Assembly (NCBI GenBank): GCA_036444275.1
Contig: JAZGAD010000011.1
Span: 1-22,899, forward strand
Direction of reading: 5' to 3'
DNA length: 22,899 nucleotides
From: Candidatus Hydrothermarchaeales archaeon
GTDB taxonomy: Archaea > Hydrothermarchaeota > Hydrothermarchaeia > Hydrothermarchaeales > JAZGAD01
Position 1 is the stretch's first letter. Each line of letters opens with the position of its first letter. This document shows positions 2,042-11,106 of this stretch, piece by piece. Both the position numbers and the translations under genes were made by a program. The notes under the pieces are model-generated. The model was not told the origin of the DNA and made no database searches. It saw nothing but the letters and a program-made list of their open reading frames with translations.

Positions 2042-2757
2042 GCAGCCTGCACTTCCTACTGGATGGCGTATTAAAGGCTATAGAGCTTATGCTCTCCCTT
2101 GATCCATATCTCTTAAGCGCCACTAAGGTGTCCCTGCAAGTCTCAGGAGTAGCGCTGATCCTAAGCACTCTTACAGCTATACCACTCGCAGTCCTAATTG
2201 CCATGAAAGAATTCAGGGGTAAGCGGCTCCTTACCACAATCATAAACAGCAGCATGGGACTTCCACCCGTAGTAGTCGGCCTAGTAGTACTCCTCTTCCT
2301 CATACGATCAGGCCCCCTGGGCTTTCTAGCTTTGTTGTATACTCCTACGGCAATGATCATAGCCCAGTATATCCTAGCTACACCCATAATAACCGGAGTG
2401 GCGATACCGGCAATTAGCAGCGTGGAGAAGAAGATAGGCGAGGTAGCTATCTCCCTTGGAGCAAGCGATTTAGACGTGGCGATTCTTGCTTTAAAAGAGG
2501 CAAAGCTCGGTGTGATTACAGCGATTCTAGCTGGCTTCGGGAGGGCGATAGCCGAGGTTGGATCGGTCTTGATTGTAGGTGGTAATATCGCTTTCTTGGA
2601 AAGGGGACATGAAATATCATATACTAGAACTCTTACCACTGCAATAACAGTGGAGACTAGGAAGGGAGACTTCTCTACAGCTATAGCGCTGGGCATTATA
2701 CTCATCGCTCTAGCATTTCTTGTAAACCTAGCTGTAACACTAGTGAAGGAGAGGTAG
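2038..2757 (+). CDS. tupB: Tungstate ABC transporter permease
   Basis: MGLPPVVVGL, GPLG..LLYTP.AMIIAQ, AGFGRAIAEVGSVLIVGGNI and TRTLTTAI motifs; ATGA overlap with tupA. Confidence 0.92.
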   Translation: MSSLHFLLDGVLKAIELMLSLDPYLLSATKVSLQVSGVALILSTLTAIPLAVLIAMKEFRGKRLLTTIINSSMGLPPVVVGLVVLLFLIRSGPLGFLALLYTPTAMIIAQYILATPIITGVAIPAISSVEKKIGEVAISLGASDLDVAILALKEAKLGVITAILAGFGRAIAEVGSVLIVGGNIAFLERGHEISYTRTLTTAITVETRKGDFSTAIALGIILIALAFLVNLAVTLVKER

Positions 2758-2758
2758 C

Positions 2759-3838
2759 ATGCTTAGGGTAGAAAATCTGTGCAAGAGCTACGATGGAAAA
2801 GAGGTCTTGAAGGGCATAGACTTCGAAGTAGAAAAAGGAGAGATATTCACTATTATAGGGCCAAGCGGTTCTGGAAAGACCACCTTGCTCCGACTGCTTG
2901 ACCTCCTGGATCAGCCCACAAAGGGGAGGATATTCTTCGATGGAGTGGACATAACTGGCAGGCACAATCTGGAGCTCCGGAGAAGAATGGCGATGGTCTT
3001 CCAGGGGGCTCCCATCTTTAACATGAGCGTCTATGACAATGTTGCCTATGGATTAAGGCTAAGGAAAGAGCGGAAAGAGGAGATAGATGGGAAGGTTGAG
3101 AATGCATTGGAATTAGTAGGGCTTATGGGCTACGAAGATAGAAATGCGAAGACCCTCTCAGGCGGAGAAGCGCAAAGAGTAGCATTTGCGATGGCCACTG
3201 TCTTCCAGCCTGAATTGCTCCTTTTAGATGAGCCCACAGCCAACTTAGATCCTATCAATGAAGCTCTGGTGGAGGAAATAATCAGGAGAATAAAGAACTT
3301 GGGAATAACTGTCGTTCTAGCAACACATAAACAGGCAGAGGCAATGGGACTGGCTGACCATGTTGCAGTCTTGAATGAGGGTATGATAGAGCAGTTCGGC
3401 GAGCCAAAGGATATCTTCCATCGACCGAGAACCCTGTTTGTGGCTAGGTTCGTAGGTGCAAGGAACATTCTCCAAGGAAAGGTGGAGCATTCAGATGCAA
3501 GCGATGATAAGACTATTATCGCTATTGAAGATTTCAAGGTAGAGACGCCCTATAGAGCGGTTGAAAAAGGAGCAAGTGTATATTTCTGCATCCGTCCCGA
3601 GGAGGTCATGCTTTTGCGGGAGGATAGGCCTATCACTCCGAGGCACACCAACATACTACAAGGCAGGATATTGGATATACACCCCTTTGGCAGTGCCATG
3701 CTCAGACTAAATGTAAGAGTTAAAGACCTGGATTTCGTAGTAGATATCCCGAGGCATGTGCTTGAAAAAATGGAGTTAAATACCGGAAAAGAAGTCAGGA
3801 TTTCCTTGAAGGCCAGCTCCTGTAATATCCTTGAATGA
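2759..3838 (+). CDS. tupC: Tungstate ABC transporter ATP-binding protein with C-terminal TOBE-like region
   Basis: Walker A GPSGSGKT, signature LSGGEAQR, Walker B LLLLDEPT; C-terminal IRPEEV beta-rich extension; starts 1 bp after tupB. Confidence 0.88.
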   Translation: MLRVENLCKSYDGKEVLKGIDFEVEKGEIFTIIGPSGSGKTTLLRLLDLLDQPTKGRIFFDGVDITGRHNLELRRRMAMVFQGAPIFNMSVYDNVAYGLRLRKERKEEIDGKVENALELVGLMGYEDRNAKTLSGGEAQRVAFAMATVFQPELLLLDEPTANLDPINEALVEEIIRRIKNLGITVVLATHKQAEAMGLADHVAVLNEGMIEQFGEPKDIFHRPRTLFVARFVGARNILQGKVEHSDASDDKTIIAIEDFKVETPYRAVEKGASVYFCIRPEEVMLLREDRPITPRHTNILQGRILDIHPFGSAMLRLNVRVKDLDFVVDIPRHVLEKMELNTGKEVRISLKASSCNILE

Positions 3839-8946: not shown

Positions 8947-9618
8947 CTACTCGACTCCCATCTCGTTGAGGAATGCCATAGCAGCACCGTTTACGTCCTT
9001 GGCGCAGGTTATAGCCCTTCCGACAACGAGGATGTCTGCTTGAGAGGCAAGGGCTTCCTTCACTTTTGGCACTTTGATTCCACCTGCAACTGCCACAGGG
9101 CCTCCGCCTAATGCATCCTTTATTTGAGGAATGTTGCCCCACTGGTGCTCGGCGTCGGTTAGCTCCAGGTCAATGGCCCTATGGAGCTCGACAATATCGG
9201 GCTTGACTCTTAACTGATTTAATACATTGATGGGGTCGTGGAGGCTGATGGTGTCCAACAGCGCCAAGACGCCCACCTTGTGGCATTCCTCGATGAACTC
9301 CTCTTGTGTCTCGATGGGAGCAACACCTGCGAATGCCGCCACATCAGCCTTGGCTTTACCTGCTATCTTGGCCTCTCGTTTTCCTGAGCTGAGTGTCTTC
9401 AAGTCGGCCAGCACCACGGACTCGGGCGTGATTTGGTGGATTTTCTCAATCACCTCCACGCCGTACCTCTTGATCAATGGGGTTCCTGCCTCTATGATAA
9501 TGGCATTATGTCTAGGCAGGGCCCTGATGATGCCCTCGACCCTCCTCCAGTCCGGGATGTCGAAGGCCACCTCTAAGTAGGGTGGGTTCTTCAGTAGGTC
9601 CTTTTTGGATTCCGTCAT
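8947..9618 (-). CDS. hps: Stand-alone 3-hexulose-6-phosphate synthase domain (OMPDC/HUMPS family), duplicate of the Fae-Hps C-terminal domain
   Basis: VAFD, IEAGTPLIK, ADLKTL, ELHRAID, VAGG and VVGRAIT motifs; collinear with residues ~175-380 of the upstream fusion; the ancestral tail continues past the TAG to 8914. Confidence 0.9.
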   Translation of the reverse strand: MTESKKDLLKNPPYLEVAFDIPDWRRVEGIIRALPRHNAIIIEAGTPLIKRYGVEVIEKIHQITPESVVLADLKTLSSGKREAKIAGKAKADVAAFAGVAPIETQEEFIEECHKVGVLALLDTISLHDPINVLNQLRVKPDIVELHRAIDLELTDAEHQWGNIPQIKDALGGGPVAVAGGIKVPKVKEALASQADILVVGRAITCAKDVNGAAMAFLNEMGVE

Positions 9619-9629
9619 TGCCTTTTCCT

Positions 9630-10802
9630 CTAAAAGTCGGTCATTACCCTGAACTGGTCGACCTCATAAACTCCCATCTCGTTGAGGAATGCCATTGCAG
9701 TGCCGTGAACGTTCTTGGCACTGGTGATGGCCTTACCGACCACAAGGATGTCCGCACCCGAAGCCAAGGTTTCCTTGATCTTCGGCACCTCAATCCCGCC
9801 AGCCACGGCCACTAGGGTGTTGCCTCCACAGGCCTTTTTTATCCCCTGAACCAGCTTCTGGTCGGGAATCCCCTGGAGCTCGACGATATTGGGTTTTAAG
9901 CGCAGCTGCTTGATTACTTCCACCGGGTCAGGCAGATTGATGGTGTCCATGAGGGCTAAAGCGCCCACTTTGAGGCACTCTTCTATGAACCTCTCCATGG
10001 TCTTTAGGGGCGCCCGCCCCGAGAATGATATGACATCTGCCGTGGCATCCCCTGCCATTCTGGCCTCCAAGTTCCCGGTATCCAGGGTTTTCATGTCCGC
10101 GATGACTATAGATTCTGGCCTAATCTGATGAATCTTCTGGCAGACCTCCACACCGTACCTCTTGATTAGAGGAGTCCCGGCCTTGATTATGATTGCATCC
10201 TTTCTCGGAAGGGACTTGAGGATGCCCTCAGCCCGCCTCCAGTCATCAGTTTCGAGGGCTACCCCAAGGTACGGGGGCATCGCTAGATTGTTTATCCTGA
10301 ATCCTATCATGTCATGCGTCGACTTATCTTTTTCCTCTAAAACCTTATCGATGCATGGGAACTTATTTATAGCCCGTCTAAGGGCAAGCTTTGTGGCTCC
10401 ATAATTATACCTATATATCCGCTGGTAGTCCTTGGCACGGGGATGGATGAAAACCGAGACGATGACCGCTAGGTCTTCCACTGAGTCTTTGGGGATGACC
10501 CCCTCCTCGACCACATCCACGACTGCCTTCGCCACAGCACTCTGCGCAGGGCCAAATATCCTCTCTGCGCCCTCAAGGTCCTTTATGGTTACCTTTGGCA
10601 CGATGAGCGTAGTTGGCTTAACTGGAAGATTGGGCCGAACCACAGCTAGGATGGGGGTATGTCCCATTCTGGGCTGGGCCAGTGAACTGGCAAACGCTTG
10701 GCCGACAGGTCCATTCTTCTTACCAACAACTAAGTCTATATGAGCGATTTCTGGCATCTCCCCTACAAGGGCCTCCCCTACCAAAAAATCGTTGTCAGTC
10801 AT
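9630..10802 (-). CDS. fae-hps: Formaldehyde-activating enzyme / hexulose-6-phosphate synthase fusion with a degenerate Hps active site
   Basis: Fae domain: GEALVG, AHIDL, GHTP, PKVTI, FGPAQSAVAKAV, YRYNYGAT. Hps domain: DMKTLDTGNLEA, AVAGG and C-terminal DQFRVMTDF. Confidence 0.95.
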   Translation of the reverse strand: MTDNDFLVGEALVGEMPEIAHIDLVVGKKNGPVGQAFASSLAQPRMGHTPILAVVRPNLPVKPTTLIVPKVTIKDLEGAERIFGPAQSAVAKAVVDVVEEGVIPKDSVEDLAVIVSVFIHPRAKDYQRIYRYNYGATKLALRRAINKFPCIDKVLEEKDKSTHDMIGFRINNLAMPPYLGVALETDDWRRAEGILKSLPRKDAIIIKAGTPLIKRYGVEVCQKIHQIRPESIVIADMKTLDTGNLEARMAGDATADVISFSGRAPLKTMERFIEECLKVGALALMDTINLPDPVEVIKQLRLKPNIVELQGIPDQKLVQGIKKACGGNTLVAVAGGIEVPKIKETLASGADILVVGKAITSAKNVHGTAMAFLNEMGVYEVDQFRVMTDF

Positions 10803-11106
10803 AATGGTCTACTCTGTGCTCGTAATTCCTGTCCTTAGCGAATTCGACGAGTTCGCTACTTTCGTGCCATATCCTTATGTGGATAAACCCTTTTCGTTCG
10901 TCAAGGCCCATAATCTCTCTTACAAAAGTAGGAAAATCCGGGGGAAGCGGTTTGTTCTTTCTTATAAGATAATCCAGGTAGTCTTTAAGGAACAGTATCC
11001 TGCCCTCGTTGCCCTTGTCCTTCAATTTTAACTTCAATTTTTTGTGAAATACACTTTCCTGCTCATCAACTTCAGAATTCTTATCCAAATTAATCACCGA
11101 ATTCAA
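10795..11106 (-). CDS. Hypothetical protein overlapping the fae-hps start
   Basis: 103-aa ORF with protein-like composition; its stop overlaps the fae-hps start by 8 bp; TTG start uncertain. Confidence 0.5.
   Translation of the reverse strand: MNSVINLDKNSEVDEQESVFHKKLKLKLKDKGNEGRILFLKDYLDYLIRKNKPLPPDFPTFVREIMGLDERKGFIHIRIWHESSELVEFAKDRNYEHRVDHYD

Follow-up and report, generated by a model that had tools for sequence, protein, structure and literature searches.

A tandem pair of Hps domains with complementary active-site losses in Hydrothermarchaeales points to a heterodimeric hexulose-6-phosphate synthase attached to Fae

The window (the whole stretch of DNA analysed here, 22,899 nucleotides of contig JAZGAD010000011.1 from a Candidatus Hydrothermarchaeales archaeon) encodes two adjacent Hps domains, one fused to Fae and one stand-alone, that lack different parts of the same active site. 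In the homodimers of the OMPDC/KGPDC/HPS suprafamily, a site consists of the barrel of one subunit and a loop of the other, which carries the second Asp of the motif DxKxxD. The stand-alone Hps retains the barrel part of this site and has no second Asp. The fused domain, referred to here as Hps', retains the loop and has lost much of its own barrel site. From these complementary losses of a shared site we infer a heterodimer with a single complete site, and we consider it probable that Hps' and Hps work only as a heterodimer, which would have one composite active site and be docked on Fae. The reciprocal pattern recurs in all relatives examined, and thus is not due to chance.

The two genes are encoded on the minus strand (Table 1). 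The fusion gene comes first, and the stand-alone gene follows in a different reading frame after the 11-nucleotide gap given in the preliminary description of this DNA. In 15 of 16 distinct pair loci, the genes are separated by operon-like spacers of 1-30 nt. We considered and rejected a single gene with read-through or frameshifting, as the frames differ and the spacer lengths vary between lineages (1, 11, 12, 13, 14, 17, 21, 24 and 30 nt). For the ORF directly upstream of the fusion, no family was identified in Pfam or NCBIfam, and there was no usable protein-atlas match. A homologue of this ORF occurs in 73 segments, where it accompanies paired and single Fae-Hps genes alike; therefore it is not specific to the split.

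Table 1. Positions of the paired genes, their domains and selected codons in the window.
Feature	Coordinates	Strand	Remarks
Fae-Hps' fusion gene	9630..10802	-	390 aa plus TAG stop; intact Fae domain and degenerate Hps barrel
Stand-alone Hps gene	8947..9618	-	223 aa plus stop; own barrel site complete, trans loop degenerate (SSGKRE versus DTGNLE)
Fae domain	10308..10784	-	Residues 7-165 of the fusion; holds H21/D23 of the AHID motif
Degenerate Hps' barrel	9669..10286	-	Residues 173-378 of the fusion
Codon GAT (D241), second Asp of DxKxxD	10080..10082	-	Proposed trans donor to the partner's site
Codon AAG (K207), in place of the Mg-ligand Glu	10182..10184	-	Residue and codon checked
Codon AGC (S77), at the trans-Asp position (D64 of HPS 3ajx)	9388..9390	-	Residue and codon checked
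11-nt spacer AGGAAAAGGCA	9619..9629	-	Between the TAG stop of the fusion and the ATG of the stand-alone gene; purine-rich, ribosome-binding-like motif
Conserved 103-aa ORF, no family assigned	10795..11106	-	Directly upstream; 8-nt overlap with the fusion start

Pfam domains identified are Fae (residues 8-165) and OMPdecase (residues 178-369) in the fusion, and OMPdecase (residues 14-214) in the stand-alone protein. The Fae domain matches PF08714 over profile positions 1-158 of 159 (8.3e-70) and TIGR03126 with 251.8 bits (cut-off 118), and the claim that it is intact, with the His of its AHID motif, holds. The entire fusion matches the NCBIfam model for Fae-Hps, NF009833 (516.2 bits, cut-off 274, model positions 2-392 of 392). 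Both Hps domains pass PF00215, the OMPDC fold (76.2 and 75.5 bits, cut-off 27). Both score below the cut-off of 200 bits for TIGR03128 (RuMP_HxlA; 113.7 bits for the stand-alone protein and 96.4 for the fusion), a model of the bacterial HxlA that may not discriminate archaeal Hps. BLASTP aligns residues 173-378 of the fusion with residues 9-222 of the stand-alone protein at 63% identity (E 5e-84), with the offset of 164 residues noticed previously. The net 8-residue loop deletion in the fused copy, also noticed there, resolves into a 9-residue and a 1-residue gap.

Alignment columns (e.g., K43, D22, E18) are given in stand-alone numbering, to which 164 is added for the fused residue ahead of the fused-copy deletion. 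In the stand-alone Hps, D20 (GAC), E43 (GAG), D72, K74, D122, H146 and R201 are all present, and S77 (AGC) occupies the position of the second Asp of DxKxxD. The site list of HPS 3ajx (D8, E30, G32-T33-P34, D59, K61, D109, H134, A164-G165 and G186; Table 1 of PMC5980557) is matched by D20/E43/G45-T46-P47/D72/K74/D122/H146/A178-G179/G200. At the site positions the fusion has E184, K207, D236, K238, D241 (GAT), Q310 and K357. The fused copy has lost the first Asp (E184), the Mg-binding Glu (K207), the His (Q310) and a loop, and its DxKxxD-TGNLE is intact. The HPS catalytic signature (Asp, Glu, Asp-x-Lys, His) is thus not found in this barrel, which has E184, K207 and Q310 and the deletion after beta-6. 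By sequence the fusion is a Fae-Hps, but bifunctionality of this polypeptide alone is not supported. The residues and codons named in the preliminary description for both copies, including AGC for S77, were all recovered.

In a structure-based family alignment, S77 aligns with D64 (HPS 3ajx), D67 (KGPDC) and D75 (OMPDC), and K207 aligns with the Mg-ligand Glu (E30 of HPS 3ajx, E33 of KGPDC), a position at which OMPDC has Lys (K42; Table 1 of PMC5980557). The Arg of the 'GR' motif had been taken as a further mark of the dead site. The residues are as described (R201 and K357), but this Arg has little diagnostic value: the difference between K357 and R201 is hardly informative alone because solved bacterial HPS chains carry S or G there in the alignments (g187 in Table 1 of PMC5980557). 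The Hps' of the window is the least degenerate of the fused clade, with GT, AGG and G-K still in place.

A role in trans for the second Asp had been asserted for the whole superfamily; for KGPDC, in which Asp67 is contributed in trans, and likewise for HPS, this is general background, to which the interface predicted below adds. For OMPDC it could be traced to print: the residue of the yeast enzyme is written D96', i.e., from the second subunit, in the accessible part of PMC12874384.

We compared 41 Hps domains from 30 loci (the genome set) and the best 120 of 1136 matches in a protein database, which include 68 stand-alone-type, 20 fused-type and 27 canonical clusters. In the genome set, all 11 stand-alone copies (84% mean column identity) keep D20, E43, T46, D72, K74, H146, R147, D150, AGG and GR, and none has Asp77 (10 Ser, 1 Lys). 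Adjacent fused copies have K43 (10/10), lack D20 (0/10) and retain D72, K74 and DTGNLE (10/10). The single Fae-Hps (14/14) and the other Hps fusions (6/6) are canonical at all scored positions.

The same holds among the best 120 of 1136 database matches. Position 77 of the 68 stand-alone-type clusters is S in 53, G in 7, T in 4 and V, N, A or K in one each, and is never Asp. D20, E43, T46, D72 and K74 are present in 68/68 and H146 in every cluster that covers the position; indeed, the matches to the 3ajx site list are kept in all of the 68 clusters that cover each position. The fused-type clusters have D-K-DTGNLE and K43 in 20/20 cases, and the canonical clusters retain Asp77 in 27/27.

A column analysis was based on 20, 15 and 33 distinct sequences and on 121 columns that are invariant in single Fae-Hps. 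Eight of the 121 are altered in the stand-alone copy, and four of these eight (77, 78, 80 and 81) belong to the donated loop and are 100% kept in Hps'. Changes in the fused copy affect 25 columns, among them 18, 20, 22, 43, 46, 146-149, 160 and 180, and 20 of these 25 are 100% kept in the stand-alone copy. An earlier list of pocket positions was partly chosen after inspection of the data; the list used here is Table 1 of PMC5980557. At the HPS site positions defined by this literature list, of which 20 do not vary in single Fae-Hps, conservation is 0.96 in the stand-alone copy and 0.54 in Hps'. The list holds 9/25 of the columns changed in the fused copy and 0/8 of those changed in the stand-alone copy (Fisher one-sided p = 0.006; the sequences are related, so the value is no more than indicative). 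Within the fused clade, positions 146 (Q/H/R), 180 (E/G/D/N) and 201 (R/E/K/S/D) are variable, and the lid is deleted. D72, K74 and D122 are invariant in this clade, and several derived states are nearly so among the best 120 of 1136 matches (K43 in 20/20 clusters, D22 in 19/20, A46 and M73 in 18/20 each).

The pair was identified in 11 of 35 Hydrothermarchaeales genomes, in one of which a contig end truncates the fused gene. None of the 35 genomes of the order has both the pair and a canonical Fae-Hps. Ten metagenome contigs encode the stand-alone type; the fused type lies upstream in nine, and the tenth begins at the stand-alone gene. Wherever DNA is available, neither type was found without the other, with no K43-type fusion that lacks a stand-alone partner, and the reciprocal substitutions co-occur in all of these sister genomes and contigs. 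All pair loci examined have intact reading frames.

The genome from which the window derives (81% complete) encodes only two Hps domains, both in the pair, and only one Fae, in the fusion. A separate Phi (198 bits, cut-off 160) is encoded, and Mch and Ftr are also present. No other Hps domain was identified in this genome (G000) or in two related ones, G006 and G008 (both 96% complete). Eight of ten relatives with the pair also carry a fusion of Hps to an RraA-like domain (Pfam) with a canonical site, so HPS activity in those organisms need not come from the pair. Canonical stand-alone Hps genes exist elsewhere (L096, L098).

Phylogenetic analysis supports the stand-alone clade (100/100), the clade of paired fusions (100/99) and the sisterhood of both (100/99), and both pair clades nest within the single Fae-Hps of the same order. 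As judged from this tree, the two copies are the products of a single duplication. Both copies are under purifying selection. The stand-alone copy has a median dN/dS of 0.090 (41/190 pairs usable) and Hps' one of 0.155 (32/105 pairs usable); medians for the Fae domain of the fusion and for single-gene Hps are 0.071 (12/91 pairs usable) and 0.057 (66/595 pairs usable), respectively. The value for Hps' implies that the domain is not evolving neutrally. Evolution of Hps' is about 1.5 times faster than that of the stand-alone copy; in 90 of 91 matched comparisons, dN is higher for Hps'.

The heterodimer was also modelled. The model has an ipSAE of 0.91, a mark reached by 58 of 80 solved complexes and 2 of 110 mismatched pairs, and the best of three controls scored 0.01, but this pass may reflect memory of the solved HPS, KGPDC and OMPDC homodimers and cannot tell a heterodimer from homodimers. 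The model runs share at least 98% of contacts, with a partner pLDDT of at least 88 and a pLDDT of 88 for both chains. The predicted interface is pseudo-symmetric, and involves residues 20, 22, 46-47, 73-74, 76-78 and 81-82 of both chains. Outside the pocket and the loop, the fused copy keeps 0.92 of the predicted interface versus 0.75 in the rest of the domain, a comparison for which the pocket list is partly post hoc. Among the best 120 of 1136 matches, the stand-alone loop has gained K/R at positions 80-81 in 67/68 clusters (R81 in 55), and the mouth of the fused pocket has gained D22 in 19/20 clusters and E18 in 13/20. The 'dead' half of the interface was re-fixed on both sides, with opposite charges. 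Of the checks suggested in the preliminary description, the family alignment, the co-occurrence of the substitutions under purifying selection and, for the heterodimer, the complex model all favour its interpretation.

We propose that, in an ancestor within the Hydrothermarchaeales, a tandem duplication copied the Hps half of a canonical Fae-Hps gene, and that each copy went on to lose a different, complementary half of the shared inter-subunit site. Hps' no longer has a barrel site of its own (Mg-ligand Glu to Lys, first Asp to Glu or Val, a variable His, a deleted lid loop and drifting phosphate loops), with the donated loop D-T-G-N-L-E kept unchanged. In the stand-alone copy, the whole barrel site was retained and the donated Asp was lost. 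Either homodimer would be inactive, and the heterodimer would have one complete site, formed by the stand-alone barrel and D241 of the fusion. Hps' would be a non-catalytic adaptor with two roles, completion of the site and its attachment to Fae. When the enzymes run towards pentose formation, hexulose-6-P (from fructose-6-P via the separate Phi) would be converted to ribulose-5-P and formaldehyde, and the attached Fae would condense the released formaldehyde with H4MPT.

Alternatively, the stand-alone Hps may be self-sufficient as a homodimer or monomer, with the trans Asp dispensable. Hps' would then be a dead structural domain (e.g., one that holds Fae oligomers) that has no catalytic part and for which binding of the partner is optional. 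The stand-alone barrel site is indeed fully intact and highly conserved, stand-alone Hps genes with canonical sites occur in other loci, and the heterodimer model is compatible with homodimers too. We nevertheless consider this unlikely. Asp77 is invariant in the canonical clusters, the single Fae-Hps and the other fusions, and is therefore normally not dispensable. Among the best 120 of 1136 matches, the dead domain keeps the Asp and TGNLE in all of its clusters while most of its own site drifts (D72, K74 and D122 excepted), and it is the stand-alone copy that changed this loop; a loop kept merely for packing of homodimers should have been retained in the stand-alone copy too. The strict co-occurrence of the two genes also argues against self-sufficiency, as do the changed loop and the changed fused pocket, both re-fixed with opposite charges. 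Decay of a redundant pair, with one or both copies becoming pseudogenes and the Hps-RraA-like fusion doing the work, would fit the presence of that fusion in most relatives with the pair and the faster evolution of Hps'. It is scarcely credible given intact frames everywhere examined, dN/dS values of 0.09 and 0.155, the same pattern in 68 and 20 distinct clusters (best 120 of 1136 matches), and three genomes in which the pair provides the only Hps domains identified.

The fused pocket is not simply decaying, as K43 never varies and D22, A46 and M73 rarely do, and it could have acquired a new function instead of serving as a scaffold. The change of Glu to Lys might recreate a metal-free, OMPDC-like Lys-Asp-Lys array, and the barrel might bind or convert another ligand or be regulatory, with or without completing the site of the partner. 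OMPDC carries Lys at the Glu position (PMC5980557), D72, K74 and D122 are invariant, and the dN/dS of Hps' is consistent with such a role. However, the phosphate-binding and lid side of the pocket varies within the clade, and the partner residue that faces the pocket can be S, G, T, K, V, N or A. The derived, conserved residues 20, 22, 46 and 73 sit at the predicted interface, so packing against the loop of the partner explains their conservation, and we find a new ligand or regulatory role highly improbable. A distinctly unlikely variant of the heterodimer is that the 'dead' half of the interface was rebuilt as a new element. The metal-free pocket of Hps', with its invariant Lys in place of the Mg-ligand Glu and its acquired D22 and E18, would receive the conserved Arg81/Lys80 of the stand-alone loop, which would lock hetero-specific pairing and possibly create a regulatory or formaldehyde-guiding site that couples HPS to Fae. 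If so, the presumed double-ring assembly of the (Fae-Hps)10 type would become one Fae ring with five asymmetric Hps':Hps heterodimers.

Canonical bifunctional Fae-Hps is known from methanogens and their relatives, e.g., Methanosarcina barkeri. The fusion has the two-domain architecture of this enzyme (NF009833 / PRK13307) with a whole-model match of 516 bits, the pair falls among single Fae-Hps of its own order, and the H4MPT pathway and Phi are present. In canonical Fae-Hps, however, a single polypeptide provides the barrel site as well as the donated loop, which gives the homodimer two sites. In the pair, the Glu, the first Asp, the His and the lid are missing from the fused barrel, and the intact barrel encoded by the second gene lacks the donated Asp. 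On its own, the fusion is probably not bifunctional, and the small protein is probably inactive. If the heterodimer with one composite site is correct, about 88 clusters among the best 120 of 1136 database matches are mis-described (labels include 'bifunctional Fae/Hps', 'OMP decarboxylase/HUMPS family' and 'hypothetical'). Metabolic reconstructions of Hydrothermarchaeota simply count Fae-Hps as present, as far as the accessible part of PMC6946796 indicates. The split would matter for such reconstructions.

To our knowledge, all described members of the OMPDC suprafamily are homodimers with two equivalent sites. The stand-alone Hps shares the fold and site signature of homodimeric HPS, KGPDC (UlaD) and OMPDC (PDB 3ajx, 9lj9, 3f4w, 1kv8, 1dv7). 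For HPS 3ajx, D8/E30/D59/K61/D109/H134 correspond to D20/E43/D72/K74/D122/H146, and the predicted dimer interface runs through 20, 46-47, 73-74 and 76-82, as in the suprafamily. Unlike in these enzymes, the halves of the shared site reside on two diverged paralogues, which would give one live and one dead site. No published description of a split or heteromeric HPS was found in a literature search of main texts, conducted partly by title. If correct, the pair would be the first heteromeric member of the OMPDC/KGPDC/HPS group found in that search, and a very clean natural case of the conversion of a shared-site homodimer to an obligate heterodimer via reciprocal degenerative loss after duplication, i.e., subfunctionalisation within one active site shared between subunits. 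Because sister lineages of the order still have a single-gene form that resembles the ancestor, the evolutionary path could be retraced and tested by swapping a handful of residues.

The closest parallels are prozymes. In the portions of the sources available, Trypanosoma brucei AdoMetDC/prozyme (PMC5201418) and PRMT1 ENZ/PRO (bioRxiv 776112) are cases in which a dead paralogue is retained by selection and is proposed to form an active hetero-oligomer with the live copy; the heterodimeric tRNA deaminase Tad2/Tad3 is grouped with enzymes activated by dead paralogues (accessible part of PMC8217354). As in these cases, a paralogue without catalytic residues is under purifying selection beside a live copy. 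The physical Hps':Hps heteromer, with activity dependent on the dead paralogue, is predicted here, and the pass of its model reflects likeness to known dimers. The prozyme cases are, from the same sources, eukaryotic and mostly allosteric. The present case is archaeal and reciprocal, in that each partner lacks a different part of one site, and the enzyme for the following pathway step is fused to the dead partner. The theme of a dead paralogue that completes an active one is known, and as far as the literature search found it is new for the OMPDC suprafamily.

The window encodes a Fae-Hps fusion and, downstream in a different reading frame, a stand-alone Hps (coordinates are tabulated below). 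The fusion carries Fae (residues 8-165) and OMPdecase (residues 178-369) Pfam domains and matches NCBIfam NF009833 with 516 bits (cut-off 274). The stand-alone protein is a single OMPdecase/HUMPS-fold domain (Pfam) and scores highest against the Hps portion of NF009833 (260.8 bits, model positions 165-381). Aligned at an offset of 164 residues, the two barrels share 63% identity, with a net deletion of 8 residues in the fused copy. The residues and codons quoted in the preliminary description all agree with the window sequence, and the reciprocal site losses that it observed are confirmed and recur across relatives.

Coordinates of the gene pair and of other features discussed in the text
Feature	Location	Strand	Basis
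Fae-Hps fusion ORF, 390 aa	9630-10802	minus	ORF and domain search
Spacer, 11 nt, AGGAAAAGGCA	between fusion and stand-alone ORFs	minus	window sequence
Stand-alone Hps ORF, 223 aa	8947-9618	minus	ORF and domain search
103-aa ORF, overlapping the fusion start by 8 nt	10795-11106	minus	
Phi (6-phospho-3-hexuloisomerase), separate 198-aa frame, window's genome	C30:12762-13319	plus	198 bits (cut-off 160)
Stand-alone Hps, 235-aa frames, metagenome contigs L096 and L098	about 2452-3156	plus	
Toxin-antitoxin-like pairs flanking stand-alone Hps, relative G010	L038:2162-4644		
Hps-AOR fusion, relative G015	L027:1498-3648	minus	

Asp67 of KGPDC is said, in papers of Wise, Yew, Gerlt and Rayment, to act in trans from the other subunit. 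Positions of the two barrels (stand-alone numbering) were mapped using HMMER alignments to the solved HPS chains 9lj9, 3ajx and 3f4w and the structure-based sites in Table 1 of PMC5980557. D20, E43, G45-T46-P47, D72, K74, D122, H146, A178-G179 and G200 correspond to D8, E30, G32-T33-P34, D59, K61, D109, H134, A164-G165 and G186 of 3ajx. S77 aligns with D64 of 3ajx, D67 of KGPDC and D75 of OMPDC (1dv7); in OMPDC the second Asp of DxKxxD is supplied by the other subunit and is written D96' in the excerpted text of PMC12874384. Fusion K207 occupies the position of the Mg-ligand Glu of HPS and KGPDC, where the same Table 1 source gives a Lys (K42) for OMPDC. The 'GR' Arg (R201 versus fusion K357) is a weak marker, since the chain alignments and PMC5980557 have S or G there in bacterial HPS, and K357 carries little weight.

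We searched 41 genomes (that of the window, G000, and 40 relatives; 35 in the order and 38 in the class) with the stand-alone protein. Within the order, the tandem pair is present in 11 of 35 genomes (G000, G003, G006, G008, G010, G013, G017, G018, where a contig end cuts the fused copy, G020, G025 and G029) and one canonical Fae-Hps in 13, and 11 genomes, 57% to 97% complete, gave no match at E <= 1e-30. Pair and canonical Fae-Hps occur together in none of the 35. A residue table of 41 Hps domains shows the barrel site kept in all 11 stand-alone copies and Asp77 in none (10 Ser, 1 Lys). All 10 fused paired domains have K43, D72, K74 and D77-TGNLE, and none has D20; position 146 is Q, H, R or K and the phosphate loops vary. 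The 14 single Fae-Hps and 6 other Hps fusions are canonical in both the barrel site and the loop proposed to be donated in trans.

The stand-alone type was found at 10 of 55 metagenome loci. A K43-type fused domain lies directly upstream on nine of these contigs, and the tenth starts at the stand-alone gene. The other 45 loci carry canonical Hps, including two stand-alone genes (L096 and L098; 61% identical, no Fae in frame) that retain Asp77 (DTGDLE). Thus, stand-alone status alone does not entail loss of the trans Asp. From a 5.8-billion-protein collection, the best 120 of 1136 matches were sorted into 68 stand-alone-type, 20 fused-type and 27 canonical clusters and 5 partial or odd entries; public labels of the matched proteins are 'bifunctional enzyme Fae/Hps', 'OMP decarboxylase / HUMPS family protein' and 'hypothetical'. 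Among these best 120, all stand-alone-type clusters retain the barrel-site residues and have S (53), G (7), T (4) or V, N, A or K (1 each) at position 77; every fused-type cluster has D-K-DTGNLE and K43 (20/20 each). In two N-terminally short proteins of 207 aa, P0090 and P0093 (62% identical to the stand-alone Hps), the TGNLE loop and the barrel site are canonical apart from Gly77; these could be independent losses of the trans Asp or else partial genes.

A maximum-likelihood tree of all 41 Hps domains, two truncated rows included, supports a stand-alone clade (100/100), a fused-pair clade (100/99) and their sister relation (100/99). Both lie inside the order's single Fae-Hps, the outgroup being the Hps-RraA-like and AOR fusions, which indicates a single tandem duplication and later divergence. 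Single Fae-Hps domains (33 distinct sequences) share 121 invariant columns. The stand-alone clade (20 sequences) is altered at 8 of these, four of them in the loop (77, 78, 80 and 81), where 100% of fused copies are ancestral. The fused clade (15 sequences) is altered at 25, including 18, 20, 22, 43, 46, 146-149, 160 and 180; at 20 of these, every stand-alone copy has the ancestral residue. In a literature-only test using the HPS sites tabulated in PMC5980557, of which 20 do not vary among single Fae-Hps, retention is 0.96 in the stand-alone versus 0.54 in the fused copy. Altered columns fall within that site list in 9/25 fused and 0/8 stand-alone cases (Fisher p = 0.006, indicative only as the sequences are kin).

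We made one structure prediction of the pair, from custom alignments of 27 and 26 rows. The heterodimer predicted in the preliminary description passes the controls (ipSAE 0.91, runs 0.90, 0.92 and 0.91, with the highest of three controls at 0.01; 58/80 solved complexes and 2/110 mismatched pairs attain the mark), and the runs share at least 98% of contacts with partner pLDDT of at least 88. As solved homodimers exist for the family, this pass may reflect likeness to them. The model shows that the pair can, in prediction, adopt the family's dimer, and is no evidence of a preference for the hetero form. Its interface is pseudo-symmetric, with positions 20, 22, 46-47, 49-54, 73-74, 76-78, 81-82, 84-86, 97, 99-101 and 124-125 in both chains. 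Among the best 120 of 1136 matches, 67/68 stand-alone clusters have K or R at 80-81 (R81 in 55), where the canonical residues are N-L, and the fused pocket mouth has acquired D22 (19/20 clusters) and E18 (13/20). On these counts the remodelled half of the interface is more than drift. Other predicted interface positions of the fused barrel are kept at 0.92, versus 0.75 for the rest of the domain.

Pseudo-two-fold symmetry would bring the loop of each chain up against the pocket mouth of its partner. The half made of fused loop and stand-alone pocket would then be the ancestral state frozen on both sides, and the half made of stand-alone loop and fused pocket would be rebuilt on both. Each homodimer would join an altered with an unaltered element and the heterodimer would match like with like, the strongest argument for the latter. 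The intact stand-alone barrel would also suit a self-sufficient enzyme beside a purely structural fused Hps domain, which we regard as unlikely. Less likely still is a novel role for the fused pocket, to which K43 and D22 might be assigned.

Decay of the pair is very improbable on the substitution rates. These were computed on domains aligned over 206 or more positions and classed by phmmer score; identical sequences were removed, and the outgroup and L023-L026, which are divergent single Fae-Hps, were left out. For pairs within 0.05 < dS < 1.5, the median dN/dS is 0.090 for the stand-alone (41/190 pairs usable), 0.155 for the fused barrel (32/105), 0.071 for the Fae domain of the fusion (12/91), 0.057 for single-gene Hps (66/595) and 0.084 for single-gene Fae (73/595). 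In 90/91 matched comparisons dN is greater for the fused barrel (median ratio 1.49). Judged from its dN/dS and this ratio, constraint on it is relaxed, yet selection clearly still acts on it. We consider an obligate heterodimer with one composite active site probable, and all comparative tests run support this prediction.

The genome of the window (1.49 Mb, 81% complete) contains no further Hps domain and no Hps-Phi fusion at that completeness. Its single Fae is the fused one, and it encodes a separate Phi, Mch and two Ftr genes. The pair would be expected to serve the reverse RuMP pathway by which archaea make ribulose-5-P, with H4MPT taking up the formaldehyde. Fae-Hps and 'Hps-Phi' are merely listed as present in Hydrothermarchaeota in the excerpted text of PMC6946796; the third Hps class in the relatives is an Hps-RraA-like fusion, not the 'Hps-Phi' named there. 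This fusion, with a canonical site, occurs in 8/10 pair-bearing relatives, which weakens the case for the pair being indispensable in all genomes. The pair is the only Hps in G000, G006 and G008.

The spacer of the pair is 1-30 nt in 15/16 distinct loci. In G010, one opposite-strand toxin-antitoxin-like gene pair lies between the two genes (814-nt gap) and another downstream of the stand-alone Hps, followed by a 95-aa remnant, with an internal deletion, of another stand-alone copy; the genes of both pairs read by eye as PIN-like and ribbon-helix-helix-like. The 103-aa ORF matches no family in Pfam or NCBIfam. It has homologues immediately upstream of Fae-Hps in 73 segments of the retrieved loci, among paired and single-gene lineages alike (full-length matches E 1e-38 to 1e-56), and is possibly a third, uncharacterised operon member. 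Two family-f7 genomes lacking any Fae-Hps match, G015 and G007 (locus L028), encode canonical Hps at the C-terminus of an aldehyde:ferredoxin oxidoreductase (AFOR_N and AFOR_C, 456 bits; open frames of 815 and 722 aa). This suggests an alternative formaldehyde hand-off, with oxidation in place of capture on H4MPT; none of the listed paper titles on such a combination seemed relevant.

Our literature searches turned up no account of an HPS or Fae-Hps that is heteromeric. The principle is known from prozymes, as far as the excerpted sources describe them: a dead paralogue completes a live one, as we propose for the fused and stand-alone Hps.
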